This document shows, piece by piece, positions 2 through 27,581 of a stretch of 42,384 nucleotides of DNA. A program made the position numbers and the translations under genes. Position 1 is the stretch's first letter, and every line of letters begins with the position of its first letter. The stretch lies in IMG/VR virus record IMGVR_UViG_3300047491_001507. One strand, written 5' to 3'. The notes under the pieces were generated by a model, which saw only the letters and a list, made by a program, of their open reading frames with translations, was not told the DNA's origin and searched no databases. Origin of the DNA: a virus.

Positions 2-478
2 TTGTATGGAAAGTTGGCTGAACTTGTATGCAAAGTTGAAAAAAACTGGTATAATGGATGTATGACTCCATTCAAACCTTTTCAAATTCGCTGGAAAGAA
101 CCTCTAGGGAAGCCGGAATGTCCCTATTTGTATCGATGGACCTTCATCATCTTCAACTTCTCGATCCGAATTCACCACTGGATTCGGTCAGATGATAAAA
201 GATTTTTTCATGATCACGCTTGCAATTTTGTTTCGATTGTGCTAAAAGGAAGGTATACTAATGTTACTGCTGAAGGGAGAACAGAAGTAAAAGCTGGTTC
301 TTTTTGGTATTCCCATGCCAAAAAACAGCATTATCTGGATGTTCCTGAAGGTGGAGCATGGACGTTATTGTTTTGTGGTCGTCCCTATCATAAATGGGGA
401 TTTTACGTTAAAGGACATAAGTGGCGACCCCTGAGATATTTCCATAAATTTGGGGTTCCACCGTGTGATATGCAGTAA
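2..478 (+). CDS. Hypothetical protein, 5'-truncated at the window edge (His-rich motif HHW..SDD..HDH, possibly a cupin-like metal site).
   Basis: ORF is open from the window start. Its stop overlaps the next start as TAATG at 476-480. Confidence 0.45.
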   Translation: MYGKLAELVCKVEKNWYNGCMTPFKPFQIRWKEPLGKPECPYLYRWTFIIFNFSIRIHHWIRSDDKRFFHDHACNFVSIVLKGRYTNVTAEGRTEVKAGSFWYSHAKKQHYLDVPEGGAWTLLFCGRPYHKWGFYVKGHKWRPLRYFHKFGVPPCDMQ

Positions 479-2446: not shown

Positions 2447-2671
2447 ATGTCTACTACAACTTTAAAAAGAACTGCATGTATTAATAGATTAAATATCAGC
2501 AAAAGCACGCTACTGGCATATTTTTCAGATGACTCTTCTATTAAAACATACCTACAATCATTAAATGATGATCAATGGCATATAGATAGCTTTGACAACT
2601 TTACCAGAGAATGTTGTCTAACTATCTTATCTGACGTTGGTGAAACTCACTTAAGTTTAATATTAAGTTAA
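2447..2671 (+). CDS. Possible small hypothetical protein (74 aa) in the 380-nt gap between two minus-strand genes.
   Basis: In-frame ATG at 2447 is preceded by TATATAAT (2433-2440). No clear RBS. Weak call. Confidence 0.2.
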   Translation: MSTTTLKRTACINRLNISKSTLLAYFSDDSSIKTYLQSLNDDQWHIDSFDNFTRECCLTILSDVGETHLSLILS

Positions 2672-5486: not shown

Positions 5487-6220
5487 AGGGCATTATTCTA
5501 ACTGGCGGAAGTGGAACACGACTTTCACCTCTCACCATTCCTACAAATAAACATTTGTTGCCAGTTTACAACAAACCAATGGTCTATCATGCCATTGAAT
5601 TGTTGGTTAATTCTGGCATTACAGATATTTTGATTGTTTGTGGAGGAAATTCAGCTAGCGATTTTTTAAGAGTGCTAGGAAACGGCGAAGAATTTGGTCT
5701 GAAGCATTTGCACTATCGATACCAATCCCAGCCAAGAGGCATTGCTGATGCTTTGGGACTAGCAGAAGAGTGGGCAGGAGACGATCCTGTTGCTTTGTTG
5801 TTGGGAGATAACATTTTCGAAAACACCTTCGAAAATGTAGTCAAAGATTTTGAGAAAAATCCTGTAGGAGCAATCATCTTTGGCACACATGTCAAACACC
5901 CAGAACAATATGGCGTTATTGTCCAAGACGAAAATGGGAAAGTATTACAAATCGTGGAAAAGCCAAAGAATCCCACTTCTGATCTAATCGCAACCGGATT
6001 GTATTTCTACGACAGCACGGTTTGGGATTTCATCAAGCAACTTTCTCCATCTTCTCGTGGAGAATTAGAGATCACCGATGTGAATTCGCATTTTTTGCAA
6101 AAAGGACAATTGAAGATAGTAGAATTGCAAGGCAAGTGGATGGATTGCGGCGAATGCATTGACGGTTATCTAGAAGCACAAAATGTGATGGCCGAAATCA
6201 TTAAAAAGCGGCAACTTTAG
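5483..6220 (+). CDS. Sugar-1-phosphate nucleotidyltransferase (RmlA-like). At 245 aa and in a heptose context, it is possibly a HddC-like D-glycero-alpha-D-manno-heptose-1-phosphate guanylyltransferase.
   Basis: MKGIILTGGSGTRLSPLT...HLLPVYNKPMVYH...LLGDNIF matches the RmlA/GlmU-type NTP-transferase signature. AGGAGG sits at 5473-5478, 4 nt before the ATG. ATGA overlap with the upstream gene. Confidence 0.8.
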   Translation: MKGIILTGGSGTRLSPLTIPTNKHLLPVYNKPMVYHAIELLVNSGITDILIVCGGNSASDFLRVLGNGEEFGLKHLHYRYQSQPRGIADALGLAEEWAGDDPVALLLGDNIFENTFENVVKDFEKNPVGAIIFGTHVKHPEQYGVIVQDENGKVLQIVEKPKNPTSDLIATGLYFYDSTVWDFIKQLSPSSRGELEITDVNSHFLQKGQLKIVELQGKWMDCGECIDGYLEAQNVMAEIIKKRQL

Positions 6221-7409
6221 CCTCTTCAATTAATTGTAAGACTTGATCTACATCAATTTTTTTACACAATTGATCGACATATTGTGTTAGAGTCTCAGAC
6301 TTTGTATTTTCAATCTTGTGTCTTCCCCATAATAAACCATCTTTTTCTTCTAGCATTATCGCTCGTGTATAAGGATAGTATTTAATTCTATACTCTGGTT
6401 GAATGCTAGTAAACAATACTACTGTAGGTATATTGAAGGCATCTGCAATGTGATAAGTTGAAGTATCTACAGTTACAATGGCATCTACTTGAGAAATTAT
6501 CGCTGCAAAATCATCTAATCTTTGCGAATATTTAGACAAACTTAAGAAACGAGGATGTTGAAAATCAGAATGTGATGTAGTTACTACAAAATAATCAGAT
6601 TTATTTAAAATCTCCTTAATGATTCTTATTGATTCAATTGTATTGATAGAACGTATTGGACTAGTAGATGTATTATGAAACAATAAAATAGGTCTTTTTG
6701 AAGATTTCAAAACAACAAATAAATCTTGTGCTTGTCTCTTGGCCTGTGGATTGACCTGATATTTAACACGTTTTGCCTCAACAGGAACCGTTGAAGGATC
6801 AATAGACAATGCTCCTAAAAAGAAATCAATCATTGGTTGATTGTCAAAGTTTTCTCTTAACAATAAAGTCCCCAAATCAATAAAGGCATTATGTTGACAT
6901 AATTTAGAGACTCGATTCGGCAACATAAAAACATGTTGAAATTTACCTTGCCATTGAACAGTAATACTTTGAACGTGGTAGGGGTTAAATTGATACAAAG
7001 AAATCTTGATCTCTTTATCTGGAAATGTCTCGGCCAGCTTATTTTGGAAATAAGCAAAAGCTTGCATTCCAATTAAATGATCCCCGATAGCATTGGACAT
7101 AGCATTCAAAATACCAATATCAATTTTTTCCACTTTAGACAAAATATCCACTACTTCATCAAACTCAATAAATCCAATGTTTTTAGGAAAAACAGGCAAA
7201 CTAGCAATCGAATAGGGATTAACAACATTTAATTTGGTATTGCTTTTTTTATTTTCTAAAGATTTTACCCGACGATCATGATCACAGGGAGTTGTGAAGT
7301 AAATCGTATTAGTGGTATCATCAAATTTATCAAATGTATGTTCGTAGACATAGCCATATTCTTCATGAGAAGCAGCAATTTGTTCTTCTGAGTTAAAAAA
7401 TAATATCAT
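6201..7409 (-). CDS. GT9-family glycosyltransferase-like protein (402 aa), comparable in size to autotransporter heptosyltransferases (TibC/AAH-like).
   Basis: C-terminal GT9 pattern DAIVTVDTSTYHIADAFNIPTVVLFTSIQPE. The N-terminal domain is unrelated to LPS WaaC/WaaF. Confidence 0.45.
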   Translation of the reverse strand: MILFFNSEEQIAASHEEYGYVYEHTFDKFDDTTNTIYFTTPCDHDRRVKSLENKKSNTKLNVVNPYSIASLPVFPKNIGFIEFDEVVDILSKVEKIDIGILNAMSNAIGDHLIGMQAFAYFQNKLAETFPDKEIKISLYQFNPYHVQSITVQWQGKFQHVFMLPNRVSKLCQHNAFIDLGTLLLRENFDNQPMIDFFLGALSIDPSTVPVEAKRVKYQVNPQAKRQAQDLFVVLKSSKRPILLFHNTSTSPIRSINTIESIRIIKEILNKSDYFVVTTSHSDFQHPRFLSLSKYSQRLDDFAAIISQVDAIVTVDTSTYHIADAFNIPTVVLFTSIQPEYRIKYYPYTRAIMLEEKDGLLWGRHKIENTKSETLTQYVDQLCKKIDVDQVLQLIEEAKVAAF

Positions 7410-11070: not shown

Positions 11071-11094
11071 CCGCCCTTCGTGGGCGGTTTTTTT
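11071..11094. terminator. Bidirectional intrinsic terminator between convergent genes.
   Basis: CCGCCC-ttcgt-GGGCGG followed by T7 on the plus strand and T4 on the minus strand. Confidence 0.8.
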
Positions 11095-12439
11095 ATTTAA
11101 TTGGTTTGCCAGAAAATCTCACCTTCATTTGAAGACCGCCACGAGCAGGACTTAAAAATCGACTAAAGCTTAAATTGTGTATGATCGGTTCTACATCATG
11201 TAGTCGCAAACAATAAGCTACTAAACTGCCACAAACACTTCCTCGCCCTGGACCAACACACTCCGAGCCATCTCCAAAACCTAAAATTTCCTTCCCTGCA
11301 CTTCTCGCTTCATCAATCATTTCTTTTTGAATCAAAAAATAGCTAGAAAATCCTTTTTTGGAAATAAGCTCATATTCCTCCTTGATGCGATTTCTATATT
11401 CTTCAGTATCAGGACATCTTCTAGCTTTCAATCCTTTTTGAGTTTCTTGCCACAAAATCATATCAGGAGCATCTACCTTAGGAAATTTAATTTCTCTATT
11501 TAACTGCACGCCTTTACACGATTTAGCAATCTTAACAGAATTTAATTTGGCTTGTTTGAACAATTCGTAATCTATATTATCTTGATAATCTTTTTCCCAC
11601 TTTTCGTTAAGCTCATCTTCACTTTTCATCCATAAATTAGAATCTTGCAGTTCGAATGCATCTTCTTCTGCATTGATCATAGCCTCAACTTCTTGAATGG
11701 TCCTTTTGTTTTTTTGCATCAACATCAAACGTTGATTAAGAGAATGTGCGCCAATGCAATAATGAGTGTCTTGAGTCAGTACTAAAGGAACGCCAAATTT
11801 ATCATGAGCTTTGATCAAAAATGAATTGTAATCTTTTTGACCTTTAAAATCCAACATCATAATTTCAAGTCTGAAATTAGGCGAAAACATCTCTTGGTAC
11901 AAACGTACCATATCCATTGCTGCATCTTCGCCATCATTCATTAAGGCATTGGCAATTTCGCTATTTGCACATCCACTTAGAAAGATCAAGCCTTTTTTGT
12001 GTCTTTTTAAGACTTCCCGAGTAACTCGTGGTTTGCGATAAAAGCCATGAATCCAACCCCAAGATGAAACCTGTACTAAATTAGAATAACCTTCATCTGT
12101 TGCAGCAAGAATTGTTAAGTGACAAGACTTATCAAATTTCTTTTGCAGATGTTCTGGCAAATCCTTGCGAAAATCAGCCGATTCTTGACGTACCTGAACT
12201 TCAGGCTGCATATCGTTAACATATGCTTCCATAGCAAAAATTGGATGCAGATTATGTCTTTCACATTCTGTAATTTGGCTTGGAACCGCTCCCATTACTC
12301 CGTGATCAGTAACACATAGGTGTTTTTGATTTAATTGCGGCATCCGTTCCGCATATTCGGCAACTGTAGCAAACCCATCAAGGAGCGAAAATGAGGTATG
12401 ACGATGAAGGTGTTCAAATCCACAAACCGGATGATTCAT
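11093..12439 (-). CDS. DnaE (Pol III alpha)-like N-terminal fragment: PHP domain plus the start of the polymerase core. It stops before the catalytic aspartates.
   Basis: HLHRHTSFSLLDG PHP motif. C-terminal GPGRGSVCGSLVAYCLRLHDVEPI...SRFLSPARGG matches the DnaE GPGRGS...ERFLNPER block. The stop follows immediately, then the terminator. No continuation is encoded downstream. Confidence 0.65.
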   Translation of the reverse strand: MNHPVCGFEHLHRHTSFSLLDGFATVAEYAERMPQLNQKHLCVTDHGVMGAVPSQITECERHNLHPIFAMEAYVNDMQPEVQVRQESADFRKDLPEHLQKKFDKSCHLTILAATDEGYSNLVQVSSWGWIHGFYRKPRVTREVLKRHKKGLIFLSGCANSEIANALMNDGEDAAMDMVRLYQEMFSPNFRLEIMMLDFKGQKDYNSFLIKAHDKFGVPLVLTQDTHYCIGAHSLNQRLMLMQKNKRTIQEVEAMINAEEDAFELQDSNLWMKSEDELNEKWEKDYQDNIDYELFKQAKLNSVKIAKSCKGVQLNREIKFPKVDAPDMILWQETQKGLKARRCPDTEEYRNRIKEEYELISKKGFSSYFLIQKEMIDEARSAGKEILGFGDGSECVGPGRGSVCGSLVAYCLRLHDVEPIIHNLSFSRFLSPARGGLQMKVRFSGKPIK

Positions 12440-14212: not shown

Positions 14213-14656
14213 TTGAATAAATTCAAGATTTGGTTAGAAGCTGAAGCTAGCATGGGCTCCCAAATGCCAGACATGTATCCTCATAACAACACGAATGCTC
14301 CTGCATCCAATGCAATAATTCAAACCGGATTACAGCCCCAAGTAGATACCCAACCCATGAAAATGGAGCCGGATCAGGACAAAATCTCAGCCATTGATTC
14401 TGGAATTGCTCATTTCAAAAATCAATTACCTGAGAAAGGCGGCGAAAAAGTAGAAAAATTCTTAAAATTATTTAAGAATTTTGAAGCAAAATGGGAAAAA
14501 ATCAAAAATGCAAATAATGTCCAAAATCAAGAAACTGGACTTGGAAATGTGCAAAACCAACCATATGCTGATTTTGCACAAAAAACCCCTAATGCACTAC
14601 CAGTTGGATTAGGGGCAGATGGAAATACAGGTCCAGGGATTTTTGGCAATCACTAA
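14213..14656 (+). CDS. Hypothetical Gln/Asn-rich protein (TTG start per the ORF track; alternative ATG at 14252).
   Basis: GGGGG sits 5 nt upstream of the TTG. Confidence 0.4.
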   Translation: MNKFKIWLEAEASMGSQMPDMYPHNNTNAPASNAIIQTGLQPQVDTQPMKMEPDQDKISAIDSGIAHFKNQLPEKGGEKVEKFLKLFKNFEAKWEKIKNANNVQNQETGLGNVQNQPYADFAQKTPNALPVGLGADGNTGPGIFGNH

Positions 14657-15456
14657 GATTTCTCAGGACGTTTTGTATTAACGTTCTTTTTCTCCCAAAC
14701 CATATTCTTGATACCCACAAAGTTGGCTAACTTTTGGGGATTGTCTTTTTCAATGTCGAAAATAATAAATTTCTCATTTTCTCCACCAAAATAGTCAACC
14801 ATATTCTTCTGTTGCCAATTGTGCCAATTGATCAAATCTTTATCTAAACCGCCCACCCCTCTTGGTAATCCAGGAATATCTAAAGAAATTAACTTACCCC
14901 TCATGTTGTACCATCGATTGATAGAACTAATCCACTTGTCCAAAGGACGAGTGTTGAAAATAAACTTGCTATTTGGATATTGCTTATCCAAAGTAGGTAC
15001 ATCTACTAACTGAGGCCAATAGCACAATTCTTCAGAGGAACTTGTGTCCATTTGAGTAAAAGCTTCAAAGTCAGGCATATAATGCAAAAGTGGTAAATTT
15101 TCCTTTTTTGCCCATTGAATTAGTGATCCGACACACACCAAAGAAGCTTTGTATCTGTTCACATGGTGCAAATACTCCCTGTTACGCACATTAAGTGCCC
15201 AATGAACAGAATCAATACCAGCACTTTGCAGAGAATATTGAATAGAACAAGTTCCAGCCTTAGGAAAACCTACGTTAAATATCTTGCCAAATTGAGAAAA
15301 TGCAATTACAGAGGCTAATTTTAAAAATCTTATAGCCCAAATCGATAATTTAGCCTGAAATATAGATCCAATTACTGTAAATGAAGTGCCGGATTTAACT
15401 GTCATACCGGCTATAATCAAAGAACTAGTAGTAGCTAACATACAATTACCCCTCAA
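14653..15456 (-). CDS. Membrane-anchored sulfotransferase-like protein.
   Basis: N-terminal TM helix. GFPKAGTCSIQYSL resembles the PKSGTT 5'-PSB loop. IFNTRPLDKWISS resembles the 3'-PB region. Confidence 0.4.
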   Translation of the reverse strand: MRGNCMLATTSSLIIAGMTVKSGTSFTVIGSIFQAKLSIWAIRFLKLASVIAFSQFGKIFNVGFPKAGTCSIQYSLQSAGIDSVHWALNVRNREYLHHVNRYKASLVCVGSLIQWAKKENLPLLHYMPDFEAFTQMDTSSSEELCYWPQLVDVPTLDKQYPNSKFIFNTRPLDKWISSINRWYNMRGKLISLDIPGLPRGVGGLDKDLINWHNWQQKNMVDYFGGENEKFIIFDIEKDNPQKLANFVGIKNMVWEKKNVNTKRPEKS

Positions 15457-15552: not shown

Positions 15553-16506
15553 TTAAGTAGTTAAAAACTGCTTATGTCTAAATTCTTCTAGATTCTTAGC
15601 ATCAAAATAGCTCATAGAGCTTCTTAGCCCATCTGAGAATCTTGCCACAATCTGTTCTAAAGTTTCATTGTTGAAATCCAACAATACCGTCTTGCCCTCA
15701 ATATATTTAGGTTTGTCTCTATAAATAGACTGAATCTCAAATGAGGCAGAACCATGATAGACCTTATAAAACCTACCATCCCGCTTAATTAGATCTGCGG
15801 GGCTATCGCTGGCGGCAGCTAGCACAGATCCCAACATTACCACATCTGCTCCAATTGCTAAAGCTTTGCAAAAATGTTCTGTGTTTTTAATCCCGCCATC
15901 AGCAATGATCAAAGCTTTAAGATATCCTTCATCCTTAACTTTACGACATTCCTTAATCAAAGAACCCATGGGTTGATATACGCCAGTGGAGTCTTTGGTG
16001 GTACAAGCGTTTCCTCCAGCTATTCCAACACGAACCCCGATAACATTGTCAAGATTTGCACACCACACAAAAGTTTCTGCCGATGCCACATTTCCTACAA
16101 TAAACTTAACATCGTCATGTATGCCAATCAGTTTTTCAATGCATTTTTTAACTAAGATATTGGCTCCATTAGCCGTATCAACACAAAATACCCTGCAACC
16201 AGCATTATATAAAGCTTCAAATCGTTCTACAAAATCACCATTAACACCAATTGCAGCAGCCATTTCATGAAATCTACAATAATCATTATGCTGTTCTTCT
16301 ATAGAAGAAAAACGATGCAGAATGCCATAGCATCCATTTCTGACCAATTTCTGACCAAATGCTCCATCACATACATCTCGCATTGGAGAAGCAATGATAG
16401 GCATTTTAAGTTTAGCATTGCCAATTGTCACCGAAGTGTTTATTGCTTCTCTGGAAATGATATTAGAAACCACTCTTGGAATTAAATATATGTCGTCTAG
16501 ATTCAT
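15553..16506 (-). CDS. guaC: GMP reductase / IMP dehydrogenase-family TIM-barrel protein (GuaC-like).
   Basis: PIIASPMRDV, catalytic-loop region GIAGGNACTTK, and IIADGGI...ALAIGADVVMLG motifs. Confidence 0.75.
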   Translation of the reverse strand: MNLDDIYLIPRVVSNIISREAINTSVTIGNAKLKMPIIASPMRDVCDGAFGQKLVRNGCYGILHRFSSIEEQHNDYCRFHEMAAAIGVNGDFVERFEALYNAGCRVFCVDTANGANILVKKCIEKLIGIHDDVKFIVGNVASAETFVWCANLDNVIGVRVGIAGGNACTTKDSTGVYQPMGSLIKECRKVKDEGYLKALIIADGGIKNTEHFCKALAIGADVVMLGSVLAAASDSPADLIKRDGRFYKVYHGSASFEIQSIYRDKPKYIEGKTVLLDFNNETLEQIVARFSDGLRSSMSYFDAKNLEEFRHKQFLTT

Positions 16507-18104
16507 TTTAAAAATTCCTTTTCATATTGTTCTTTAGGAACTAAATAAATATGCTCGTCAGGATCTGGCCCATCACAATAATACACAACTTCTTCTCCAT
16601 CGACATTTCTTGTGCCCAACAACACCACATCCCTCCAAATTCTATGAATAGAAGTCATGGTTTCACGCACATATTTTTCATACAAAGGACGATCATCCCA
16701 ATAATGCTGCATGAAAAACCAACCCTTGCCCAAATGATTAGGGTCAGTCAAGCGAATGTCGGGAAAACCTCCATTCAAATGCCTATTGAGCAGATTTTTC
16801 TTGATGGAATCAAAATCTCGATTCACAATTTTGTATTCTCCATTGGGGAATTTTCGCCATTCATAGAATTGTTTACGATCACAAAATTCTCTGGTGAAAA
16901 ATTCTTGAACCAATGTATAATCATTGTAAAATTTTCTAACTTCAAATACTTTTTCTTTACCTAATCCTAATTGTTTATCCCATTTTTCCTTTTCTTTCAT
17001 ATCCTGGCATTCTTCGTATTCTCGTCCAAATTTGCCTTTGTTCCATCGATCCTCGATATCCAAAAGCAATTCAAATCCCAATTTATAGGGATTCATAGAA
17101 TACTTTCCGCCCAAGACCTGCATTTTATGCTTGGAATATTCCCAAATTCCACAATCAGTGGTAGGTTGCCCTAAAGACACTAGCCCTTCTCTACAAAGAA
17201 GATGATAATCTACATAAGAGGCCCAACCTTCATTTATCATTTTGGTACGTCTCTGAGGATCAAAATACATCGATTCCTCATACAACATAGTGATAATGTC
17301 TTGTTGCCAAGGCTTTAAAGGGGCATGGTCCTTTAAATAACCCATAATATTTTTTTCTGGCTTTTCAAAAATATCCAGAAATTCTTTGGCATCCTTACGT
17401 TCAATAATTTCATGTTCTCTTTCGATATATTCCTTAGGATTCACCCATTCATCCATATAATTATGAGTTGAATCCAAACGACGAGGGTGACGATAATTTC
17501 TTTCGTCCTTGATTACCGCTTTCTTAATTTTACGTTGCTTCCAGGCATCTTGAGGATTAATCAATGTTTCAATTCTCAATACCTGATCGATAAACTCAGT
17601 AACTGTTTCCCTGCCCCAACGTGCCATATAATTGCGGATTCTTGTGCCGTGATTCGCAAGTTTGTTCATCATGTTTCCATCTGTAGGATGGAAGAAAATG
17701 TTGTTTTTAAAGAAATCGTTATGTCCAATGGCATGACAAATAACATTAATATTATCCACCAGGGTGTTAGAATCCATTATGTAAATACGACAAGGACAGG
17801 TATTCACAACCATTTCTGATATACGATATTGGTTAAATTCATATCCTCTTGCCAATTGCTCATATTCCATACCCCACTTCCAATGGGGATATCGTACAGG
17901 AAACCCTCCGTAACTAGCTAACTCTGACATTTCATCATAACAAACGAATTCCAGAATGATTGGGTAATAATCCAATCCCATACCCTTACATGCCGCTTCA
18001 ATTTGAGGCAATATTTCGACTACTTCCTTGTGTACTGGCACACCTGGGATAGTGTTATTGCCTTGTAGAATCGGAGAGCCACTAAACATTTTGGATTTAG
18101 ACAT
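16503..18104 (-). CDS. spoVR: SpoVR / YcgB-family protein.
   Basis: YPHWKWGMEYEQL...EMVVNTCP...HAIGHNDFFKNN matches the YcgB/SpoVR core (AHAAFGHNDFFKNN). 533 aa. ATGA-coupled to the downstream gene. Confidence 0.75.
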   Translation of the reverse strand: MSKSKMFSGSPILQGNNTIPGVPVHKEVVEILPQIEAACKGMGLDYYPIILEFVCYDEMSELASYGGFPVRYPHWKWGMEYEQLARGYEFNQYRISEMVVNTCPCRIYIMDSNTLVDNINVICHAIGHNDFFKNNIFFHPTDGNMMNKLANHGTRIRNYMARWGRETVTEFIDQVLRIETLINPQDAWKQRKIKKAVIKDERNYRHPRRLDSTHNYMDEWVNPKEYIEREHEIIERKDAKEFLDIFEKPEKNIMGYLKDHAPLKPWQQDIITMLYEESMYFDPQRRTKMINEGWASYVDYHLLCREGLVSLGQPTTDCGIWEYSKHKMQVLGGKYSMNPYKLGFELLLDIEDRWNKGKFGREYEECQDMKEKEKWDKQLGLGKEKVFEVRKFYNDYTLVQEFFTREFCDRKQFYEWRKFPNGEYKIVNRDFDSIKKNLLNRHLNGGFPDIRLTDPNHLGKGWFFMQHYWDDRPLYEKYVRETMTSIHRIWRDVVLLGTRNVDGEEVVYYCDGPDPDEHIYLVPKEQYEKEFLK

Positions 18105-18134
18105 TTTTTAATCTTCCTTAATACACAATTTAAC

Positions 18135-19097
18135 TTAACTTGGCTTTTTTTCAAGCTCTTTTTCAAGAAATTTAACAATTTGCAGCCAACTACCAGGATT
18201 TCTAAATAAAGTCACTGACGGATACCAGATAGTTTTACTTTCCCTTCCCCATCGAGGATCAGCATGAACAGGCAATAGTCCCCAAGTTGGCACTCCCATC
18301 ACCCCTGCTAAATGCAATACAACAGTATCCACACTAATTACAAGAGACATTTGACTTATTAATTCGGCAGTATCTAGAAGATCCTTTATTTTATTTGGCA
18401 AAAACAAATTGCATTCATGAGGAATTAAAGAATGTAGTTTGAATTTCTCTAAACGCACCAAATCCGGCAACGGAATGGACTTGTCTTTAAACAGATTGTT
18501 TTCTGGATTACTTTCCCAAGCAATTCCTATTTTAAAATCATCAGGTTTTTTGTAAGGATAAACAGATACTTGCTGAGGAATCGTTGTCTTTTCCAGCAAA
18601 TCTTTAAAATGAGCAGGATAATACACATCGTACTTCAATCCGGCTAAAATCGCTGGAACACTAAGAATATTAGTGTGATAATCGCATCGAACATGACTGT
18701 AAACAAAACGATCAATAGATGTTACGCCATGTAGCAATCGTTCGAATTGATCATAATAAGGATAACAATTCAAAGTAATAGTGCAACTTTTCCACCTATC
18801 TTTAATGACAGGCAAATAGCGAAGCATGTTGATTAAATCACCCATGCCTTGATCTGAGAAAATTTCAATAGATTTTCCAGATAGATCTTGTCCAGTCCAA
18901 TTAACACCAAAATGATCTTGTGTTAGATTCTTTTCATAAAGACTGACAAAATTTTTAACCAAAAAATCCTTAGGAAATAACCTAGAAAGCATTTCCAGTA
19001 AAGGTTTTGCTCTTTCTTTTTGGTTGGTGCAGAAATAATTATTGCAAGTGGCTAAAATATGAGATTTCATGCCGCTTGTGATTGTGTGGAATTTCAT
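18135..19097 (-). CDS. GT9-family heptosyltransferase-like glycosyltransferase (320 aa).
   Basis: SDQGMGDLINMLRYLPVIK (GT9 Gly-rich N-motif). C-terminal ...ISVDTVVLHLAGVMGVPTWGL. Confidence 0.65.
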   Translation of the reverse strand: MKFHTITSGMKSHILATCNNYFCTNQKERAKPLLEMLSRLFPKDFLVKNFVSLYEKNLTQDHFGVNWTGQDLSGKSIEIFSDQGMGDLINMLRYLPVIKDRWKSCTITLNCYPYYDQFERLLHGVTSIDRFVYSHVRCDYHTNILSVPAILAGLKYDVYYPAHFKDLLEKTTIPQQVSVYPYKKPDDFKIGIAWESNPENNLFKDKSIPLPDLVRLEKFKLHSLIPHECNLFLPNKIKDLLDTAELISQMSLVISVDTVVLHLAGVMGVPTWGLLPVHADPRWGRESKTIWYPSVTLFRNPGSWLQIVKFLEKELEKKPS

Positions 19098-19136
19098 TTT
19101 TCCATTTCTTCAAAATGAATACACCCAAACATAAAA

Positions 19137-20390
19137 TCACACAGGATTTTTAGCGTCTGAACGACCTAACAATTTACGAATCGCATCAATAATCTGCGTA
19201 TCTCTTGTTTCATCATCCATGTTAACTGGACTGTAATTCCAACTATTACCACTAGACTCAGTGCTGGCAGATGAGCCAATATCTACCGATCTTAAATAAT
19301 CGCTTTTAATATTCTCATCAATTGCCTTCTTGACACTACCTTCATAATTCCAAGAGCAAATCTGAGAAATCCCAATCATATTGACGATGTTAGGACTAAG
19401 TTGTTCGTTGATGATATTGACTACCTTTTCATTGTCTCCATCCCAGTTATCTCCATCTGTAAAATAAAATATATAAATATTAAATGCTTCTGGAGGATAA
19501 CGATTTTCTAATTGTTCAGCGATGGATTTGAACACAGACGAGCATAAAGTTCCGCCCATGTATCGCATTTTGTAAAATTGATCCTCATTAACTTCCATAG
19601 CTCGTGTGTCATGGACAAAATAACAACGATCAACTCGTTTATAAAACCTCTTGATCCAACAATCGATCCACCAAGCCATGTCAGAAACAATATCGCAACG
19701 AAAATCATCCATACTTCCAGAACAATCTCGGGCAAAGAAAATCACTGCATTAGATGAAGGGATTTTAATTTCTTTATATTGACGATATCTTCGATCAGAA
19801 TTAATTGGAGCAATCAAACGAATTGGCATCTTCATGCCAGGAAGTTGATGTACCTTTTCTAGACTTTTAGTCATTGCCAATCGTTTCAAAGTCTCCATAA
19901 TAGTTCGACGGGTATGCCTTAAAGACTCAGGACCAGTTTTGGAAATATCATTGTACTTAATCTTTACTTCTTCAAAAGTCTCATTGGGCTTAGGTTCCAT
20001 ACGAGGAAGCTTCAGTTCTTCCTCCATAAATTTCAAAACATCATCCAAGTCTACAGTAATATCAATGCCTTCGCCCGATTGATCGCCCGCTTTATTCCCT
20101 TTTCCAGGCTGAGGATCTCTGCCGATAATATCACCTTCCTTCCCAGGACCTCGTGCAATGCCTTTCCCCTGAGTGCCAAAGGCAAAATGGGGGATTTCAA
20201 TTTCAGGAATAGAGATGGTCATTTTACCACCTTTAGGACGATTTCGGACAATTGAGCCGGATTTAATTAAACGCTTTAACTCTCTCCTAGCTCTACCAGA
20301 GATTACATCCCTAAAACCTTGCCAATCTTCATGAATTCTCTTAGTAATAAAGCACCTATTTTCTGTAAACTTGGATGACGAAAAGTTCAA
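19137..20390 (-). CDS. yeaH: YeaH/YhbH-family protein (DUF444, vWA-like).
   Basis: VIFFARDCSGSMDD MIDAS-like DxSGSM motif. 417 aa. Sits between SpoVR-like and PrkA-like genes. Confidence 0.7.
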   Translation of the reverse strand: MNFSSSKFTENRCFITKRIHEDWQGFRDVISGRARRELKRLIKSGSIVRNRPKGGKMTISIPEIEIPHFAFGTQGKGIARGPGKEGDIIGRDPQPGKGNKAGDQSGEGIDITVDLDDVLKFMEEELKLPRMEPKPNETFEEVKIKYNDISKTGPESLRHTRRTIMETLKRLAMTKSLEKVHQLPGMKMPIRLIAPINSDRRYRQYKEIKIPSSNAVIFFARDCSGSMDDFRCDIVSDMAWWIDCWIKRFYKRVDRCYFVHDTRAMEVNEDQFYKMRYMGGTLCSSVFKSIAEQLENRYPPEAFNIYIFYFTDGDNWDGDNEKVVNIINEQLSPNIVNMIGISQICSWNYEGSVKKAIDENIKSDYLRSVDIGSSASTESSGNSWNYSPVNMDDETRDTQIIDAIRKLLGRSDAKNPV

Positions 20391-21010
20391 ACGTTATGTT
20401 CTAAAACATCTCTTGCAGCACAAATTTGCTTAATTTCTTTTTCTTCCGACTTTTCCATAACCAAAAGCCACCAAAATCCTTGAGATGGAAATCTGTCCAA
20501 AACACTATTCTCTAAATAAGGAAACACTCTAAATTCGCCGCCATATTTGTCCATCAACTGATGACAATAACCAGGAGCATTTCCGTATTTGTTGAACCCT
20601 ACAGGCATATCTGCTTGGCCACCAGTAATTAACTTAAAACTACTAAATCGTTCAAACAAAATATCTGCTGTTTTCAAAAACATCTCCCCATAAGTCCAGG
20701 TATAATATACCTCAACAACGGGAATTTCACAAGTAGTAAAATCCCCAACTAAAATGTCTAATCCTCTGTTTATAGCTACAGAATAACGAGCCGGATCTTT
20801 TTCAATCCCAATCACACTTTTGGCATGCTTCGCCATTTGTGCCATAATATCTCCTTCGCCACAACCAACATCACAAACTGTTTTGCCAGTAATGATATCT
20901 TTTATAGCTTCAACTATGCACAAAGGAGATCGCCAAGGAAATGGCCGTACAAATTCACTAGGATCAGGACAAACTAAAGGCAAATCTATAATTTTCGCTA
21001 TACTTTTCAT
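20387..21010 (-). CDS. Class I SAM-dependent methyltransferase.
   Basis: Motif I VCDVGCGEGDIM. Acidic residue after beta2 (IGIEKD). Confidence 0.65.
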   Translation of the reverse strand: MKSIAKIIDLPLVCPDPSEFVRPFPWRSPLCIVEAIKDIITGKTVCDVGCGEGDIMAQMAKHAKSVIGIEKDPARYSVAINRGLDILVGDFTTCEIPVVEVYYTWTYGEMFLKTADILFERFSSFKLITGGQADMPVGFNKYGNAPGYCHQLMDKYGGEFRVFPYLENSVLDRFPSQGFWWLLVMEKSEEKEIKQICAARDVLEHNV

Positions 21011-21023
21011 GTGTAATCCTTAA

Positions 21024-21056
21024 TTGTCCCATGTGTACATTGTACACATGGGACAA
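21024..21056. promoter_or_regulatory. Perfect 16-bp inverted repeat TTGTCCCATGTGTACA-t-TGTACACATGGGACAA between the PrkA stop and the methyltransferase RBS. Operator or processing hairpin.
   Basis: Read directly. The core GTGTACA-N-TGTACAC recurs at 42315-42331. Confidence 0.45.
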
Positions 21057-21066
21057 TAATTAAATG

Positions 21067-23205
21067 TTAATTTTCAGCAACATCACCGGTTGCAAACAAA
21101 GAGCTACAGTAATCGAGCACATCCGTGGCAGATTGCTGATTGTAACCATAATTCTTGATCAGCCTTGTCTTTACTGCTTCAAGCTTTTCCTGAAGATCTG
21201 GATCTACTTCTGATGCTTCTCTGGTTAAAGATGACAATTTAATGGTAGATCTAACATCCTCAAACATCTTGGCTTGCAAAGCTCGTTGCAATTCAGGATT
21301 GGAATCCCAGCTAAATTCCTGTTTGCGACGAGCCAACGTCCCAATAAACGATGACAAAGATCTACGAAAATCATCACATCCCTGTTCGGGAATGTTATTC
21401 TTTTCTTCGATACTTCGCATGAGACGCTCGTCTGGGTCCATCTTTTCTCCTGTGATCGGATTGATCATCTTCTCTTCATTTACATAAGCAATGACATTGT
21501 CAATGTATTTATTGCACAACCGTTCAATTGCCTTCTCATCTGCCACAAGAGCTTTCTGAACTTCATTCTTGAGAATTTCGTTCAGTTCTTTGATTGCCAA
21601 TTCCGCACAATATTCATATCGCTTAATATCTTCCACATTAGTGATCAAAGATGAAGCAGAAAGTCCTGCCTTCAACTCCGACATCACATGGAACACATTA
21701 ACATACGACTTGTGCCTTGCAAGACAATTAGAAAGCTTATCTTGCACATAACGAGCAGAAACGCCCGTATCCATACCTTCCGTAGTATACTTGTCTCTTA
21801 ATTCCTTAACAGAATCTTCTGTCCATCCTGGCAGAGCCCGACCATCATACAATTTCGCTTTATCACGAAGGTCCAGCTTTTTGTCAGGATCGTCATATAA
21901 TCGTGTCAAAACCGCAAATAAAGCAGCAATTTCTAGAGTATGCGGCATCATGTGCTGTTTGATTTTGGTAGGCCCGTAATCCTGTTCCAAAACCTTAATT
22001 TCATCAGACCATCTCAAAAGATATGGCACATCAATCTTAATAGTACGATCCCGCAAAGCTTCCATGAATTGGTTGCTCTTTAGGCGTTGAAATTCCGCAC
22101 CATTTGTATGGGATACAATCAATTCATCAATAACAATTTGGCTAAATTTCTTTGGTTTAATCTGGTGTTCTTGAGAAGCACCCAGCAAATCATAAAGAAA
22201 TTCATTGGTCAATTTCAACATTTCGATGAATTCAACCATACCACGATTGCCAACTTCAAATTCTCCATCGAAATTAAATGCTCGACTGTCAGAATCAGCC
22301 CCAAAATGTCCGATTTTGGCGAAATTCATGTCGCCAGTCAGTTCTGTGCTATCCTGATTTTTCTCATCTTTTGGTTGAAAAGTGCCAATACCTACTCGAT
22401 CAATTTCAGAATGGACTCGACGTACCACACGAATATGTTCTGTGACAACTTTAAACCAATCGCCATTGTATCGACGCAAAAGTTCACTCATAAAGAACTT
22501 ACAACGAGGATTCAAATCTCCTTCAGAGATTAATTCATAAGGAGAATCCCCATTATGTTGTTTGGAGAAAATGTCATTCAATTCTTTCAAAAAGACATTA
22601 CGCATTGACATTGGCATTAATTTCAATGGATTTTCATTCATTGGAGACATGCAAGTATCTTCAGTATACATTGCATTAATGCCTTCACATGGCAAATTGA
22701 CCCATTTATAAGAATACCAAGCTCCTTCTGGAGTGCGGCTGTATTTTTCCAAACCACGCTTAATCAAACGGCAAATTGTGGATTTCGAAGAACCAACAGG
22801 TCCATGTAGCAACAAAACACGATGTTCTGTGCCATATCCTCCAGCAGCACCTTGAATAAAATCCACAAGCTGCTGCAAAGTTTCTTCCAAACCAAAGATT
22901 GGAATCTCTTGATCATTAAAGAAATTGTAACGATTATAGCTTTTACGATATCTTTCGAAGGCAGTCACGCCTTTTGAAATAATCATATCGTAAATATATT
23001 GAAATGAATTTCTGGCCAAAGTCGGCTTGCTTTTAAGTTGCTCGACATAGTCTGAGAAACTCATTTCTTCATGAAGAGCCATAAATTCCTTACGATCATA
23101 CAATTGTGCGTACTGCATTAGGCTTGAAGAGACAGAGTTTTGTTGTTCCATAAGTAATTTCTGCTTTCTACAAAGTTGAGTTTGTAATTCTTGCTTCATC
23201 CACAC
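21067..23205 (-). CDS. prkA: PrkA/YeaG-family serine protein kinase (AAA+ N-domain plus kinase-like C-domain).
   Basis: P-loop block RVLLLHGPVGSSKSTICRLIKRGLEKYS. 712 aa. Conserved N-terminal and C-terminal architecture of the PrkA family. Confidence 0.8.
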   Translation of the reverse strand: MWMKQELQTQLCRKQKLLMEQQNSVSSSLMQYAQLYDRKEFMALHEEMSFSDYVEQLKSKPTLARNSFQYIYDMIISKGVTAFERYRKSYNRYNFFNDQEIPIFGLEETLQQLVDFIQGAAGGYGTEHRVLLLHGPVGSSKSTICRLIKRGLEKYSRTPEGAWYSYKWVNLPCEGINAMYTEDTCMSPMNENPLKLMPMSMRNVFLKELNDIFSKQHNGDSPYELISEGDLNPRCKFFMSELLRRYNGDWFKVVTEHIRVVRRVHSEIDRVGIGTFQPKDEKNQDSTELTGDMNFAKIGHFGADSDSRAFNFDGEFEVGNRGMVEFIEMLKLTNEFLYDLLGASQEHQIKPKKFSQIVIDELIVSHTNGAEFQRLKSNQFMEALRDRTIKIDVPYLLRWSDEIKVLEQDYGPTKIKQHMMPHTLEIAALFAVLTRLYDDPDKKLDLRDKAKLYDGRALPGWTEDSVKELRDKYTTEGMDTGVSARYVQDKLSNCLARHKSYVNVFHVMSELKAGLSASSLITNVEDIKRYEYCAELAIKELNEILKNEVQKALVADEKAIERLCNKYIDNVIAYVNEEKMINPITGEKMDPDERLMRSIEEKNNIPEQGCDDFRRSLSSFIGTLARRKQEFSWDSNPELQRALQAKMFEDVRSTIKLSSLTREASEVDPDLQEKLEAVKTRLIKNYGYNQQSATDVLDYCSSLFATGDVAEN

Positions 23206-23310
23206 AACTTGCTAATTTTAACGCAAAATTAACAGAGGTCTTATGTCCGCAAGCTTAAATTCGGCTGTAGCCTATTTAAATTTAATTGCATTAATATTGG
23301 TTAATTTAAG

Positions 23311-23338
23311 ACAATCTCAAACCAATTGCAATAGTAAA
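23311..23338 (-). promoter_or_regulatory. Candidate sigma70-like promoter for the prkA operon (TTGCAA - 16 nt - TTAAAT, minus strand).
   Basis: Lies in a 143-nt intergenic region, about 100 nt upstream of the prkA start. Confidence 0.25.
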
Positions 23339-23348
23339 ATTAGAAATA

Positions 23349-24267: not shown

Positions 24268-25638
24268 TTATTTTATTAAAAAATTTGAAGTGCTCAGATC
24301 AGGAATAATGGGAGCACGATATACCTCAGGAACCAAGTCATGTCCCACTATATCCTCAATTTTATAATCTGACCCTTTAATTAATACGTCAGGACATATC
24401 TCTTTAATAATCTCTAAGGGTGTATCTTCATCAAAACTGACTACAAAATCAACCATCTCCAATGCTGCCATCACCGCCATCCTTTGCTCCAAAGGCTTAA
24501 TTGGACGATTTGGACCCTTTAACCTCTTCACGCTCTCATCAGAATTGATAGCAACTACCAACTTATCGCCCTTGCTCTTAGCATAATTTAAGGTCATTAG
24601 ATGACCTTCATGGAGCAAATCGAAGCATCCATTGGTGAATACGAGCTTAAAGTCTCGATCTTTTAAATCCATGGGCTCTACAATGCCATCTGGAAGGATC
24701 TCAGCAGGAATAATGGGTCGATTCATATTGTTTTGAACATAGACAGCACCAGCATTCCAAGCAATTTCTGCGGCCTCAGCAACTGTAAATCTCTGACCAA
24801 TTGCCATAGCAAAACAAGCTGCAAAACAATCTCCAGCACCCACCACGCTATCTACATGAACATGTGGACGACAAGGTTGAAATTCAAATAGCTCATTTTT
24901 ATAAATTCCAGCTACCTTTTCGCCTCCAAAGGTAATTACCACCGCTTCACAACCTAATTCTTCCATGAAAAATTGAGCTTGATTTCTCCAACTGCTATAA
25001 CCGCTGAGATTTTCTGCTTCAATTTTATTAGGCTTAAAGATGGTACAGCCTTTCCATCTGGACAAAGGACCACGTTTTGGGTCTACAATGGTCACTACAT
25101 CTCGATATTGATCCAAAAAATTAACGTCTGATTTAAAAAATCCTTTATCATAATCAGAAAATATAGCCACATCCGGCTTTTCTGCTTTTTTGATTTCACT
25201 TACTATTCTTCTAGCAAATTCATTGATTTGTTCCTGAGAACGTCCACAAAGAAATTGCTCAATATCATGTCTTACAATCTGTGTGTGTCCATCTAAAAAC
25301 CTTCTTTTAATTGGCAAAAAAGCATCTGCCTCCCATGCAGTAATGGTTTTCAATTTATGATCCTTATACACCTTCATGGGTAAAGCATCCCAAAAACAAA
25401 TCAAACTTGCATCCACATTGAAATGTTTGAATTGATAAGCTACATTTGCGGCTCCTCCTGGCTTACGAATAGGCTCATCAGTAGTCGAAGTCATAATCGG
25501 CATAGGAGTTTCTGGAGAAATTCGATCCACCTTGACCGAAAAATACTCATCAATCATTGCATCACCTAGACAGTGAACCCTCACGCAATTTTGATGATTA
25601 CGTCTCAGAAACATCTTCAGAATGTTGTTTTTTGTCAT
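24268..25638 (-). CDS. hldE: Bifunctional HldE/RfaE: D-beta-D-heptose-7-phosphate kinase plus D-beta-D-heptose-1-phosphate adenylyltransferase.
   Basis: N-terminal PfkB-type sugar kinase (GAGDCF). C-terminal cytidylyltransferase-fold domain with FTNGCFDLLHEGH. Confidence 0.8.
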   Translation of the reverse strand: MTKNNILKMFLRRNHQNCVRVHCLGDAMIDEYFSVKVDRISPETPMPIMTSTTDEPIRKPGGAANVAYQFKHFNVDASLICFWDALPMKVYKDHKLKTITAWEADAFLPIKRRFLDGHTQIVRHDIEQFLCGRSQEQINEFARRIVSEIKKAEKPDVAIFSDYDKGFFKSDVNFLDQYRDVVTIVDPKRGPLSRWKGCTIFKPNKIEAENLSGYSSWRNQAQFFMEELGCEAVVITFGGEKVAGIYKNELFEFQPCRPHVHVDSVVGAGDCFAACFAMAIGQRFTVAEAAEIAWNAGAVYVQNNMNRPIIPAEILPDGIVEPMDLKDRDFKLVFTNGCFDLLHEGHLMTLNYAKSKGDKLVVAINSDESVKRLKGPNRPIKPLEQRMAVMAALEMVDFVVSFDEDTPLEIIKEICPDVLIKGSDYKIEDIVGHDLVPEVYRAPIIPDLSTSNFLIK

Positions 25639-26039: not shown

Positions 26040-26490
26040 CTTTTTCTACTTTCTTAAAATCAACCGAAATTCTTCCTGTCATTCCCTGAACTGTAACAAT
26101 ACCTCTTCTTTCTTCCTGCATTATCACAATTGTATTATCTTCGCATCTTCCATTAGGATAAAAAATGATTTTAGGATTATCACTTATATCAAATTTCAAT
26201 TCATAAGGCAATTTCTTCTCTTCGTCATCAAAATAATAAACAGAAGTTTCTGGTTTGTATTTGAAAATAACCTGTTTACCTTTAGACTTCGACAGTAACT
26301 GATAGTGTTTCAGATCATTTCTTAAATTTTTAACTGCAATTTGCAGATTGGATTTGGTAATATCTTTTAATACGAATGGCAATGCCATACCTACCATAAA
26401 TACAATAATGGCAAGTACTAACATCATTTCTACAAGTGTGAATGCTTTATTTCGTGTATTCAACAACATTAAACAACTCATGTTCTTCAA
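25978..26490 (-). CDS. Type IV prepilin / pseudopilin-like protein.
   Basis: Class III signal peptide MKNMSCLMLLNTRNKA|FTLVEMMLVLAIIVFMVG: a basic leader, Ala at -1, Phe at +1, Glu at +5 and a hydrophobic helix. Confidence 0.55.
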   Translation of the reverse strand: MKNMSCLMLLNTRNKAFTLVEMMLVLAIIVFMVGMALPFVLKDITKSNLQIAVKNLRNDLKHYQLLSKSKGKQVIFKYKPETSVYYFDDEEKKLPYELKFDISDNPKIIFYPNGRCEDNTIVIMQEERRGIVTVQGMTGRISVDFKKVEKDEQQICEEEPIESSVGQIAP

Positions 26491-26914
26491 GTAGATTGGA
26501 TTTCCAACCTAATTTATATAGATCAGGAAAGAATGTATCTCCATCGTAAGATGCCTTAACTTCTGAAGCAATTACTTTATCTACCAAATTCTGTTTCAAA
26601 GCTTCACGATAAATCCTGCCACCACCAATGATGAAATAATTTCTCCTACCATCCATCAAATCACAAAAAGTAATCGCATGTTCCAATGAATTCACTACTC
26701 TTCCTAGAGACGGCAATTTTCTAGAAACAACTACATTTAGACGATTAGGCAAAGGTTTTACTGGCAGGCTTTCCCAAGTGACTCTTCCCATAATTAGAGG
26801 GGAATTCCCTGTAATCTTTTTGAAATGTTTCAAATCCTCTGGAATATGCCAGGGAATCTGTCCATCTTTACCAATAACGAAATTCTTTGAATAAGCCACA
26901 ATAATTGTAATCAT
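26447..26914 (-). CDS. folA: Dihydrofolate reductase.
   Basis: MITIIVAYSKNFVIGKDGQIPWHIPEDLKHFK and MGRVTWESLP match the DHFR signature. Start reassigned to ATG 26914 (155 aa). Confidence 0.8.
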   Translation of the reverse strand: MITIIVAYSKNFVIGKDGQIPWHIPEDLKHFKKITGNSPLIMGRVTWESLPVKPLPNRLNVVVSRKLPSLGRVVNSLEHAITFCDLMDGRRNYFIIGGGRIYREALKQNLVDKVIASEVKASYDGDTFFPDLYKLGWKSNLLEEHELFNVVEYTK

Positions 26915-26933
26915 CCTAAACTCTTTTATAATA

Positions 26934-27581
26934 ATGATTAGCGAAACAGGACACAATTTATCAATATTAATAGTAACTGAACCAGAGAAAGACTGGGAAA
27001 CTTTTGGAACATGGTATTCCATTTACAAAAATCTCCCAGATGCTCAAATTGTGTTAGCGTGTCAAAGAAATAACAAAACTCCATTTGTGTTATTTCAATG
27101 GACAAAAAAACTTCGCATTCCCATTGTGCATCATAACAAACTTACTAAAGACGACACAATAGCAAATACTTTAGATTCAGCTAGGAAATTACGCAAATCA
27201 ATTAAAAACAAAGACTTAATGATTGTTTTTCCACTAACCATGGTGCTGGATACACCTGACTTGGAAGTATTTTCGAAATCATGGATTAATCAACATGCTT
27301 GGTTTTTGCAAGACAATGATATCGATATTTTATTAGATCAACATTTTTTAATAGGCGATCAGTGGGAATATGACGAGCAAATTTGCCCACAAGCTAAAGA
27401 ATCTGAAGATTTGTCATGGTTGATTAATTATAGCAAAGGTTGTGGAAGATGGATACATACTTTAAGGGGATGCCCATTTTCAAATGCATTGGGTCTTGTC
27501 AATGCACCGATGACGGTGAATGAGACTCGGGTATTTGAGATGTGGCAAAAATTATGTCCATTATATAATGCGTTAACATAA
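26934..27581 (+). CDS. Hypothetical protein (215 aa).
   Basis: Long ORF. Its start is only 19 nt from the divergent DHFR start. Confidence 0.5.
   Translation: MISETGHNLSILIVTEPEKDWETFGTWYSIYKNLPDAQIVLACQRNNKTPFVLFQWTKKLRIPIVHHNKLTKDDTIANTLDSARKLRKSIKNKDLMIVFPLTMVLDTPDLEVFSKSWINQHAWFLQDNDIDILLDQHFLIGDQWEYDEQICPQAKESEDLSWLINYSKGCGRWIHTLRGCPFSNALGLVNAPMTVNETRVFEMWQKLCPLYNALT

Follow-up and report, generated by a model that had tools for sequence, protein, structure and literature searches.

We analysed a viral DNA record of 42,384 nucleotides (nt), IMGVR_UViG_3300047491_001507 (hereafter the window, meaning this whole stretch), in which the region 15553-23338 encodes on the minus strand the three proteins PrkA (YeaG), DUF444 (YeaH/YhbH) and SpoVR (YcgB), known from bacteria as the yeaG–yeaH–ycgB or prkA–yhbH–spoVR module. 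It is a further case of a phage-borne trio, present here as a local variant with methyltransferase, GT9-like and GMP reductase (GMPR)-like insertions. The initial annotation, made from the sequence alone, had taken viral carriage of the module for a new kind of auxiliary system and not a known phage function. This does not hold: the trio already figures in the Thermus phage phiYS40, the Ralstonia jumbo phage RsoM2USA, the megaphage record LR745206.1 and the PHROGs collection. The corrected picture is that of a phage module that is not new, yet ancient, conserved and recurrent. The explanation that we favour overall, with moderate confidence, is a captured phage module that would sustain a starvation-adapted state of the host during long infections.

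Profile searches left no doubt about the family identities proposed for the three proteins, with E values in the range of 1e-62 to 1e-99. The prkA gene (21067-23199, minus strand) encodes a PrkA/YeaG-family AAA+ ATPase ('serine protein kinase') that matches both Pfam domains of the family, AAA_PrkA (PF08298; 1.9e-75, 254.6 bits) and the PrkA C-terminal domain (PF06798; 1.3e-69, 235.1 bits), far above their cut-off of 25, as well as PHROGs family phrog_22605 (4.8e-99). The yeaH/yhbH-like gene (19137-20390, minus strand) encodes a DUF444 protein with a C-terminal vWA domain and MIDAS motif, recognised by Pfam (PF04285; 7.4e-62, 210.2 bits against a gathering score of 27), NCBIfam and PHROGs (phrog_19072, 3.9e-74). 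The spoVR/ycgB-like gene (16503-18104, minus strand) matches PF04293 (2.4e-99, 333.3 bits against 27) and carries the motif HAIGHNDFFKNN; its open reading frame (ORF) spans 533 amino acids (aa), or 528 aa from the start chosen by gene callers. PHROGs v4 contains families for all three trio proteins (22605, 19072 and, for SpoVR, 35217). The length of 712 aa initially given for PrkA corresponds to the ORF 21067-23205 with a GTG start at 23205, whereas the true start is probably either the ATG at 23199 called by the Joint Genome Institute (JGI), which yields 710 aa, or the ATG at 23151, which yields 694 aa, the length of the homologue in the phage record LR756511.1.

All three proteins matched the expected NCBIfam families with scores well under the equivalog cut-offs: 191 bits for PrkA against the Escherichia coli-type model NF011999 (576 required), 295 bits for DUF444 against PRK05325 (8.6e-88; 388 required) and 220 against the YhbH model (468 required), and 151.6 bits for SpoVR (679 required). 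Judged by these scores, the window PrkA is a family member and not a YeaG equivalog. Their key motifs are nonetheless kept. We counted conservation in 66 viral PrkA, 62 viral DUF444 and 60 viral SpoVR sequences. The lysine of the PrkA Walker A motif (HGPVGSSKST in the window) is 100% conserved in the 66 viral and in 79 bacterial homologues as well as in E. coli YeaG, and the EFIE and DRT segments are essentially invariant across the viral sequences (60-66 compared). The MIDAS elements of DUF444, namely D-x-S-G-S (DCSGS, within the vWA motif DCSGSMDD), GGT and DG-x-N (TDGDN), are likewise 100% conserved, both among the homologues (62 viral, 50 bacterial) and in E. coli YeaH. SpoVR possesses the HxxGHxxFFKNN and NEGWAS motifs, with H124, H128, N291, E292 and G293 invariant, and throughout the viral clade the HxxGH…FFKNN and NEG motifs are essentially invariant, the His motifs being 100% conserved. 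This complete conservation of the Walker A, MIDAS and SpoVR histidine motifs in the viral clade points to purifying selection on the trio. A single difference stands out: after NEGWASxW, the 47 nearest bacterial SpoVRs and E. coli YcgB all have a histidine, whereas 60/60 SpoVRs of the viral clade have an aspartate (D299 in the window), a clade-specific change at what is probably a metal or active-site position.

Some homologues in the viral clade are unusually long, ~1085 aa for two PrkAs (P0089 and P0115) and 870 and 882 aa for two SpoVRs (P0207 and P0214), one of the latter with a Pfam intein-splicing domain, which suggests that inteins have inserted into module genes; inteins typically sit in conserved, important phage genes. 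In the Protein Data Bank (PDB), the entries 9xip, 9xiq and 9xir (30 chains) describe a 692-aa 'Serine protein kinase' that aligns with PrkA residues 18-688 (E = 1.6e-201); our literature search found no paper for the 9xip structure.

The relatives of this module are viral. The window PrkA is 100% identical to the JGI protein P0001, encoded on a contig of 306,208 bp, and its nearest match among GenBank phages is LR756511.1, a 595-kb 'uncultured phage' record (60% identity), in which DUF444 (52%) and SpoVR (58%) come after PrkA. The window helicase, 18 kb away from the module, also has its best match in this record, on the same strand and ~25 kb from PrkA. Sister LR7565xx records are counted in PMC9723777 among the huge phages that Al-Shayeb et al. 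described in 2020. At the DNA level, a search for near-identical copies of the region among GenBank phages gave no match. Scanning IMG/VR with an alignment query, which we used instead of a single-protein query that had returned one distant locus only, revealed a relative encoded on 181 viral contigs, the best 80 of which we compared with the window proteins by tblastn. In 77 of these 80 loci the trio occurs in order on one strand, and in the remaining three the contig stops just after PrkA or DUF444. Identities to the window across these loci reach 57-76% for PrkA, 46-69% for DUF444 and 50-73% for SpoVR. This survey of viral contigs and a phylogeny, both proposed in the initial annotation, recovered a viral clade.

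The canonical order on one strand with tight packing can be read directly in the window, and the same-strand order PrkA–DUF444–SpoVR is also that of most bacterial loci holding all three genes. Direct adjacency does not apply to the window, where genes of 207 and 320 aa lie between the members of the trio, but it holds in most viral relatives, whose intergenic gaps are mostly under 100 nt, with a minority showing insertions of 1-4 kb at either junction. The wider synteny HldE…PrkA–DUF444–(GT9-like)–SpoVR…ClpP-like…DnaE recurs on contigs of 140-690 kb.

The window lacks any hallmark structural gene, so that its viral identity is inferred from its relatives. A rival explanation is that the genes are non-viral (from a bacterial chromosome, a plasmid or another element), a recent neutral passenger from the host, or part of an assembly chimera. 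In favour of it, besides the missing capsid, terminase, portal and tail genes, one may note that the three families are overwhelmingly bacterial and that the relatives reach 690 kb, a large size for a phage. Against this stand the presence of a relative on 181 IMG/VR contigs, the repetition of the gene order on many independent assemblies, the fact that PrkA and the helicase 18 kb away share the same best GenBank record, the monophyly of the viral clade for the three proteins, the lack of any PrkA more than 54% identical in 185,579 species-representative genomes, and the absence of tRNA, rRNA and other Rfam matches from the window; in addition, none of the contigs of four PrkA homologues that we checked (0/4) exceeds 1 Mb. 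A non-viral origin is therefore largely refuted and we regard it as highly improbable. The virus-like context first proposed stands on indirect evidence, namely the IMG/VR relatives, the synteny with LR756511.1, the 306-kb contig and the lack of a closer bacterial copy, and we take the source, with some residual doubt, to be a tailed phage of jumbo or huge size.

The relation to bacteria is distant. Querying 185,579 species, each represented by one genome, with an alignment of viral PrkAs yielded 561 relatives, the closest of which (50-54% identical) belong to Myxococcota/Polyangiales, Chloroflexales, Calditrichota and Bdellovibrionota, complete Sorangium chromosomes included; none exceeded 54%. 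Where present, the bacterial DUF444 and SpoVR proteins are only 32-39% and 35-41% identical to those of the window, and none has phage-type neighbours. Neighbour-joining (NJ) trees based on Kimura distances, a coarse test with 100 bootstraps and a bacterial sample made of the top-80 matches, placed the viral sequences apart from every bacterial sequence sampled in 100/100 bootstraps for PrkA, 100/100 for DUF444 (in a tree that left out the Thermus-phage DUF444) and 98/100 for SpoVR. The low bacterial identity and these trees rule out a recent acquisition from a host and, taken together, argue for one old acquisition followed by vertical descent. Thus, the sequences indicate that the capture of the module goes far back, to an ancestor of this phage clade, and that it was inherited vertically as a tight prkA→yeaH→spoVR unit, to which the methyltransferase gene with its hairpin, the GT9-like gene and the GMPR-like gene were added in the present lineage. 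This was probably not the only capture. The PrkA and SpoVR of phiYS40 and of locus L007 fall outside the clade of the window in the NJ trees and, since phiYS40, RsoM2USA, LR745206.1 and L007 hold distinct module types, large phages seem to have captured the module independently.

What the module does must be approached from its bacterial homologues. In six bacteria, the cofitness among yeaG, yeaH and ycgB exceeds r = 0.7, and their phenotypes relate to the use of nitrogen and amino acids (10.1101/072470). The PrkA of Bacillus subtilis relies on its Walker A motif to bind and hydrolyse ATP (K108 being required); no kinase activity was detected, and a slow ATP-dependent degradation of casein was reported (PMC9512850). 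The PrkA of B. anthracis, classified in AAA+ clade III, had negligible kinase and protease activity, and the earlier protease signal was ascribed to a possible contaminant (PMC13001217). The following mechanism would be compatible with these data. PrkA would work as an ATP-driven AAA+ motor rather than as a proven kinase, YeaH would be its vWA/MIDAS adaptor, and SpoVR a partner or effector that binds metal and is possibly zincin-like. The three would jointly remodel or process target proteins, an activity that in bacteria may govern adaptation to nutrient stress. The phage copy would be expressed during infection and impose or maintain a starvation-adapted host state, which would sustain a long cycle in nutrient-poor hosts. 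Among the carriers of the trio, RsoM2USA has a latent period of 270 min (PMC8504454).

Several points weigh against this proposal. Whether PrkA acts as a kinase, as a protease or as neither is disputed among biochemical studies, and the mutant phenotypes of the bacterial trio differ between species (10.1101/072470), which makes the 'starvation state' a loose reading. Neither Pfam nor PHROGs detected a capsid, terminase, portal or tail gene in the 42-kb window, and the strict promoter pattern TTGNNN-16..18-TATAHT found upstream of prkA in many relatives is absent from the upstream region of the window's own prkA.

The name of the family invites a different explanation, in which PrkA is a true protein kinase for host takeover, like the T7 protein Gp0.7, with targets in host transcription, translation or defence, and YeaH and SpoVR are accessory regulators. 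Its C-terminal domain is indeed distantly similar to cAMP-dependent kinases (PMC9512850, PMC13001217). However, two biochemical studies reported neither autophosphorylation nor kinase activity and described the C-terminal P-loop as degenerate (PMC9512850, PMC13001217), the AAA+ Walker A is the sole ATP site shown to be functional, and searches of PADLOC and of anti-defence families gave no match. We consider this explanation distinctly unlikely, and the 'kinase' label used in the initial annotation is itself disputed (PMC9512850, PMC13001217). PADLOC returned zero matches for PrkA, DUF444, SpoVR, the GT9-like protein and the GMPR-like protein, with the methyltransferase alone partly matching mad2; without any match for the module, we also rejected the trio as a known anti-phage defence system.

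The main rival is a role in phage morphogenesis, the trio being a chaperone or processing system (AAA+–vWA–metallopeptidase-like) that folds, assembles or trims proteins of the virion or of the replication factory, on the model of the MoxR–vWA(–metallopeptidase) pairs proposed for group 2.2 jumbo phages and of the one that the Acidianus two-tailed virus requires to develop its tails. The components fit this idea, with an AAA+ protein, a vWA/MIDAS protein and a possible zincin fold of SpoVR, and MoxR–vWA–metallopeptidase pairs of jumbo phages have been proposed by Iyer et al. to act in virion assembly (PMC7824862). Moreover, a ClpP-like protein that matches head-maturation-protease PHROGs is encoded 2.4 kb downstream of the module and is syntenic in the relatives. 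On the other hand, the bacterial homologues act in phage-free cells, with metabolic and stress phenotypes (10.1101/072470), and the module lies in no structural block, its neighbours being genes of replication and nucleotide metabolism (DHFR, ThyA, DnaE, HldE). The sigma70-type promoters of the relatives suggest early or middle expression by the host RNA polymerase, and the SpoVR HxxGH motif (HAIGH) has no catalytic Glu.

The structure of SpoVR bears on the same question. In an AlphaFold2 model (predicted local distance difference test score, pLDDT, 79; predicted template modelling score, pTM, 0.75), one helix bears H124 and H128, and a long helix further on bears N291-E292-G293, an arrangement that might tentatively be likened to that of gluzincins. 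A Foldseek search of the model against the PDB returned nothing significant, and an alignment of the SpoVR profile with E. coli PepN by hhalign gave a probability of 0.4%, that is, no homology signal. We do not class SpoVR as a zincin (gluzincin) metallopeptidase, which would be recognised by an HExxH motif with its catalytic Glu, a downstream Glu ligand and a significant structure or profile match. The morphogenesis role seems to us unlikely, if a serious competitor. The location of the module among replication and nucleotide genes and the sigma70 element upstream of it in 31/84 loci lead us to favour an intracellular, non-structural role.

That element, TTGNNN-16..18-TATAHT within 260 nt upstream of prkA, was found in those 31 of 84 viral loci against ~2.4 expected. 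It often reads CTTGNN…TATACT and is situated 30-116 nt upstream of prkA in loci L002, L006, L008-L013, L015, L018, L020-L024 and others. The AT-rich intergenic region upstream of prkA in the window (23200-23348, minus strand) holds the promoter candidate proposed earlier at about 23311-23338, which did not stand up: what can be seen there is a sigma70-like match of only 9/12 positions at 23320-23293, and sites of this kind occur at chance level between 14 and 26 kb (46 found, against 42.2 ± 7.3 in shuffled sequences).

The genes interposed in the trio are peculiar to the window and its closest relatives. The first one (20387-21010, minus strand) encodes a class I S-adenosylmethionine (SAM)-dependent methyltransferase of 207 aa, matching Pfam MetW (1.2e-5) with other methyltransferase families under cut-off, and among 87 related loci it exists only in the window and in its identical Logan contig (L003). 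The second (18135-19097, minus strand) encodes a GT9-like (heptosyltransferase-family) protein of 320 aa with a TPR-like N-terminus, whose match to Pfam Glyco_transf_9 (PF01075) is weak, 46 residues with 20.5 bits (E = 3.2e-4), short of the gathering score of 22. Its orthologues all match GT9 weakly too (9/9, best 1.7e-5), and it is only in the nearest subclade (loci L004-L006, L008-L012, L014 and L015) that the gene stands at the DUF444/SpoVR junction. Thus, of the two interleaved genes described initially, the SAM methyltransferase is confirmed by a family match above cut-off and the GT9 assignment stays below it. After spoVR comes a gene (15553-16506, minus strand) for an IMPDH/GMP-reductase-family protein without the CBS subdomain (Pfam IMPDH, 4.4e-58). 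The best full-length NCBIfam match of this protein is GMP reductase PRK05458, with 155 bits against a cut-off of 344, and IMPDH models score similarly; the gene adjoins spoVR only in the lineage of the window.

The ATGA overlap on which translational coupling was proposed for this region exists at one junction, where the spoVR stop overlaps the start of the GMPR-like gene, but the overlap between the methyltransferase stop and the TTG start of the DUF444 gene reads TTGA. Similarly, the perfect palindrome reported between prkA and the methyltransferase gene is real, although it measures 35 nt (17+1+17) instead of 33. It lies at 21023-21057, in the gap that separates the prkA stop from the methyltransferase start, is the longest of the window and would fold as RNA with a free energy of -26.8 kcal/mol (z = -5.5). 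As there is no second copy in the window, we rejected it as a repeated regulatory element, and with no T-run after the stem we also rejected it as a canonical (intrinsic) terminator. Since the palindrome adjoins a gene limited to the window and L003, the hairpin and the methyltransferase gene look like one lineage-specific insertion.

PHROGs and Pfam searches with 30 further ORFs of the window gave no match to capsid, terminase, portal or tail families. Upstream of prkA, the hldE-like gene (24268-25638, minus strand) would encode a bifunctional heptose-7-phosphate kinase/heptose-1-phosphate adenylyltransferase (NCBIfam HldE, 4.2e-81; Pfam PfkB and CTP_transf_like); the match is under the equivalog cut-off, and most of the 80 IMG/VR loci have this gene in the same upstream position. 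The ClpP-like protease and the HNH protein mentioned in the initial annotation are both present, together with a dihydrofolate reductase (DHFR), a Dam-type methylase, a DEAD helicase, a DnaE fragment and many ORFs without family, whereas the tRNAs mentioned with them are not: ARAGORN detected 0 tRNAs and Rfam 0 families in the window. Other genes of auxiliary type encode a cysteine-dioxygenase-like protein (2-478, plus strand; phrog_4786, 1e-28), a thioredoxin-like protein (2668-3549, minus), the Dam-type N6-adenine methyltransferase (1418-2359, minus) and the DHFR (26447-27022, minus).

The dnaE gene (11093-12439, minus strand) encodes only a 448-aa N-terminal piece, made up of the PHP domain and the beginning of the domain of pol III alpha, and we did not find the C-terminal part in the window. 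Several relatives have a separate DnaE ORF of ~470-480 aa (loci L009, L010, L014, L017 and L020), loci L004 and L005 have an intein/LAGLIDADG-containing form, and LR756511.1 has a contiguous gene of 1183 aa (L002, 24622-28173). Near the window start, a perfect inverted repeat (1300-1339) with arms of 16 nt and a loop of 8 nt is followed 50 nt on by an 11-nt perfect GC-containing stem with A and T runs on either side (1386-1411; AAAAGCCCACC/GGTGGGCTTTT); this second element resembles a terminator that serves convergent genes in both directions.

Four of the minus-strand genes make up a potential ADP-heptose set, namely the HldE-like gene (24268-25638), the weak GT9-like gene inside the module (18135-19097), a clear GT9 gene (6201-7409; 1.3e-8) and a sulfotransferase gene (14653-15456; 6.8e-11), and these annotations suggest that the phage has an ADP-heptose chemistry of its own. 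One could then imagine, as a speculation to which we give little credence, a three-part ATP-driven machine (AAA+ motor, MIDAS adaptor and zincin-like metalloprotein), captured several times by large phages and near-core in one clade of huge phages, which would switch the cell to a state of starvation or dormancy, or hold it there, and which the subclade of the window would couple to heptose chemistry. With the GT9-like gene inside the operon and the HldE gene upstream, a target or regulator that is glycosylated would then be suspected.

The earliest phage record of the trio that we found is that of phiYS40, whose genome paper dates from 2006. There, DUF444 is gene 056, SpoVR is gene 057, which bears that annotation, PrkA is gene 059 ('serine kinase'), and Pfam confirms all three; the phiYS40 relatives TMA, phiLo, the Lalka phages and MN1 carry PrkA too. 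In RsoM2USA, PrkA, DUF444 and SpoVR correspond to ORF30, ORF29 and ORF28, and its paper tabulates SpoVR and PrkA (PMC8504454). Two megaphage records of more than 630 kb, LR745206.1 and LR756502.1, encode YeaH and a YeaG of the E. coli type, with 64-65% identity to the E. coli protein; LR745206.1 carries YcgB (53%) beside them, and in LR756502.1 no SpoVR/YcgB was found within 8 kb of them. The literature that we searched offered annotation tables only, with no functional or analytical study of the trio in phages, and the main texts of jumbo-phage reviews and of the huge-phage paper do not mention it. In the 30.8-kb record of Enterobacter phage LAU1 (MN688132.1), a YeaG-annotated gene (211-1884) stands at the very start; it might be host flank of a prophage-derived record and not a phage gene.

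What may deserve a report in its own right is how large and deep the viral clade is, and the fact that large phages of several unrelated lineages possess the module. PrkA/YeaG–YeaH–SpoVR/YcgB is among the most widespread bacterial modules without an agreed biochemical mechanism. Since several unrelated viral lineages carry the trio and one clade keeps it under purifying selection, it is probably of direct use to a virus with a long, resource-hungry cycle, and the cultured carriers phiYS40 and RsoM2USA provide compact genetic systems for testing its function.

Among known systems, pairs of an AAA+ protein with a vWA (MIDAS) protein include RavA–ViaA, CbbQ–CbbO, NorQ–NorD and the Mg-chelatase BchI–BchD–BchH. 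The logic proposed here resembles that of such MoxR–vWA systems (AAA+ motor, MIDAS vWA adaptor and a third protein with a metal site), an analogy by which we claim neither homology nor membership: PrkA belongs to AAA+ clade III (PMC13001217) and not to the MoxR family. With the bacterial yeaG–yeaH–ycgB/prkA–yhbH–spoVR module the window shares the three Pfam families, their order on a single strand and the Walker A, MIDAS and SpoVR His motifs. It differs in being phage-borne, in the two extra genes interposed, in its neighbourhood and in the Asp for His substitution of SpoVR. Its proteins are very divergent from the E. coli trio (Kimura distances of 1.7-1.95), the nearest bacterial form being the long PrkA type of ~690 aa found in Myxococcota, Chloroflexota, Bdellovibrionota and Calditrichota.

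Among phages, genes 056-059 of phiYS40, TMA and phiLo resemble the window in that the three families are clustered on one strand, in this case in cultured large myoviruses, whereas phiYS40 has the order DUF444–SpoVR–X–PrkA, identities to the window proteins of only 31%, 34% and 22%, a genome of 152 kb and a thermophilic host. RsoM2USA and LR745206.1, as jumbo or huge phages, have a contiguous PrkA→DUF444→SpoVR arrangement, and LR756502.1 can be grouped with them despite having no SpoVR nearby. Their PrkA is of the YeaG type, 59-65% identical to E. coli YeaG and only 25-27% to the window PrkA, from which we infer that these copies probably derive from a separate acquisition. Finally, LR756511.1 and the IMG/VR clade (loci L008-L087) contain the same module lineage as the window and share its flanking HldE, ClpP-like and DnaE genes; the trio is directly adjacent in most of them, whereas the window adds the methyltransferase gene with its hairpin and the GMPR-like gene, and has the GT9-like gene in common with its nearest subclade.

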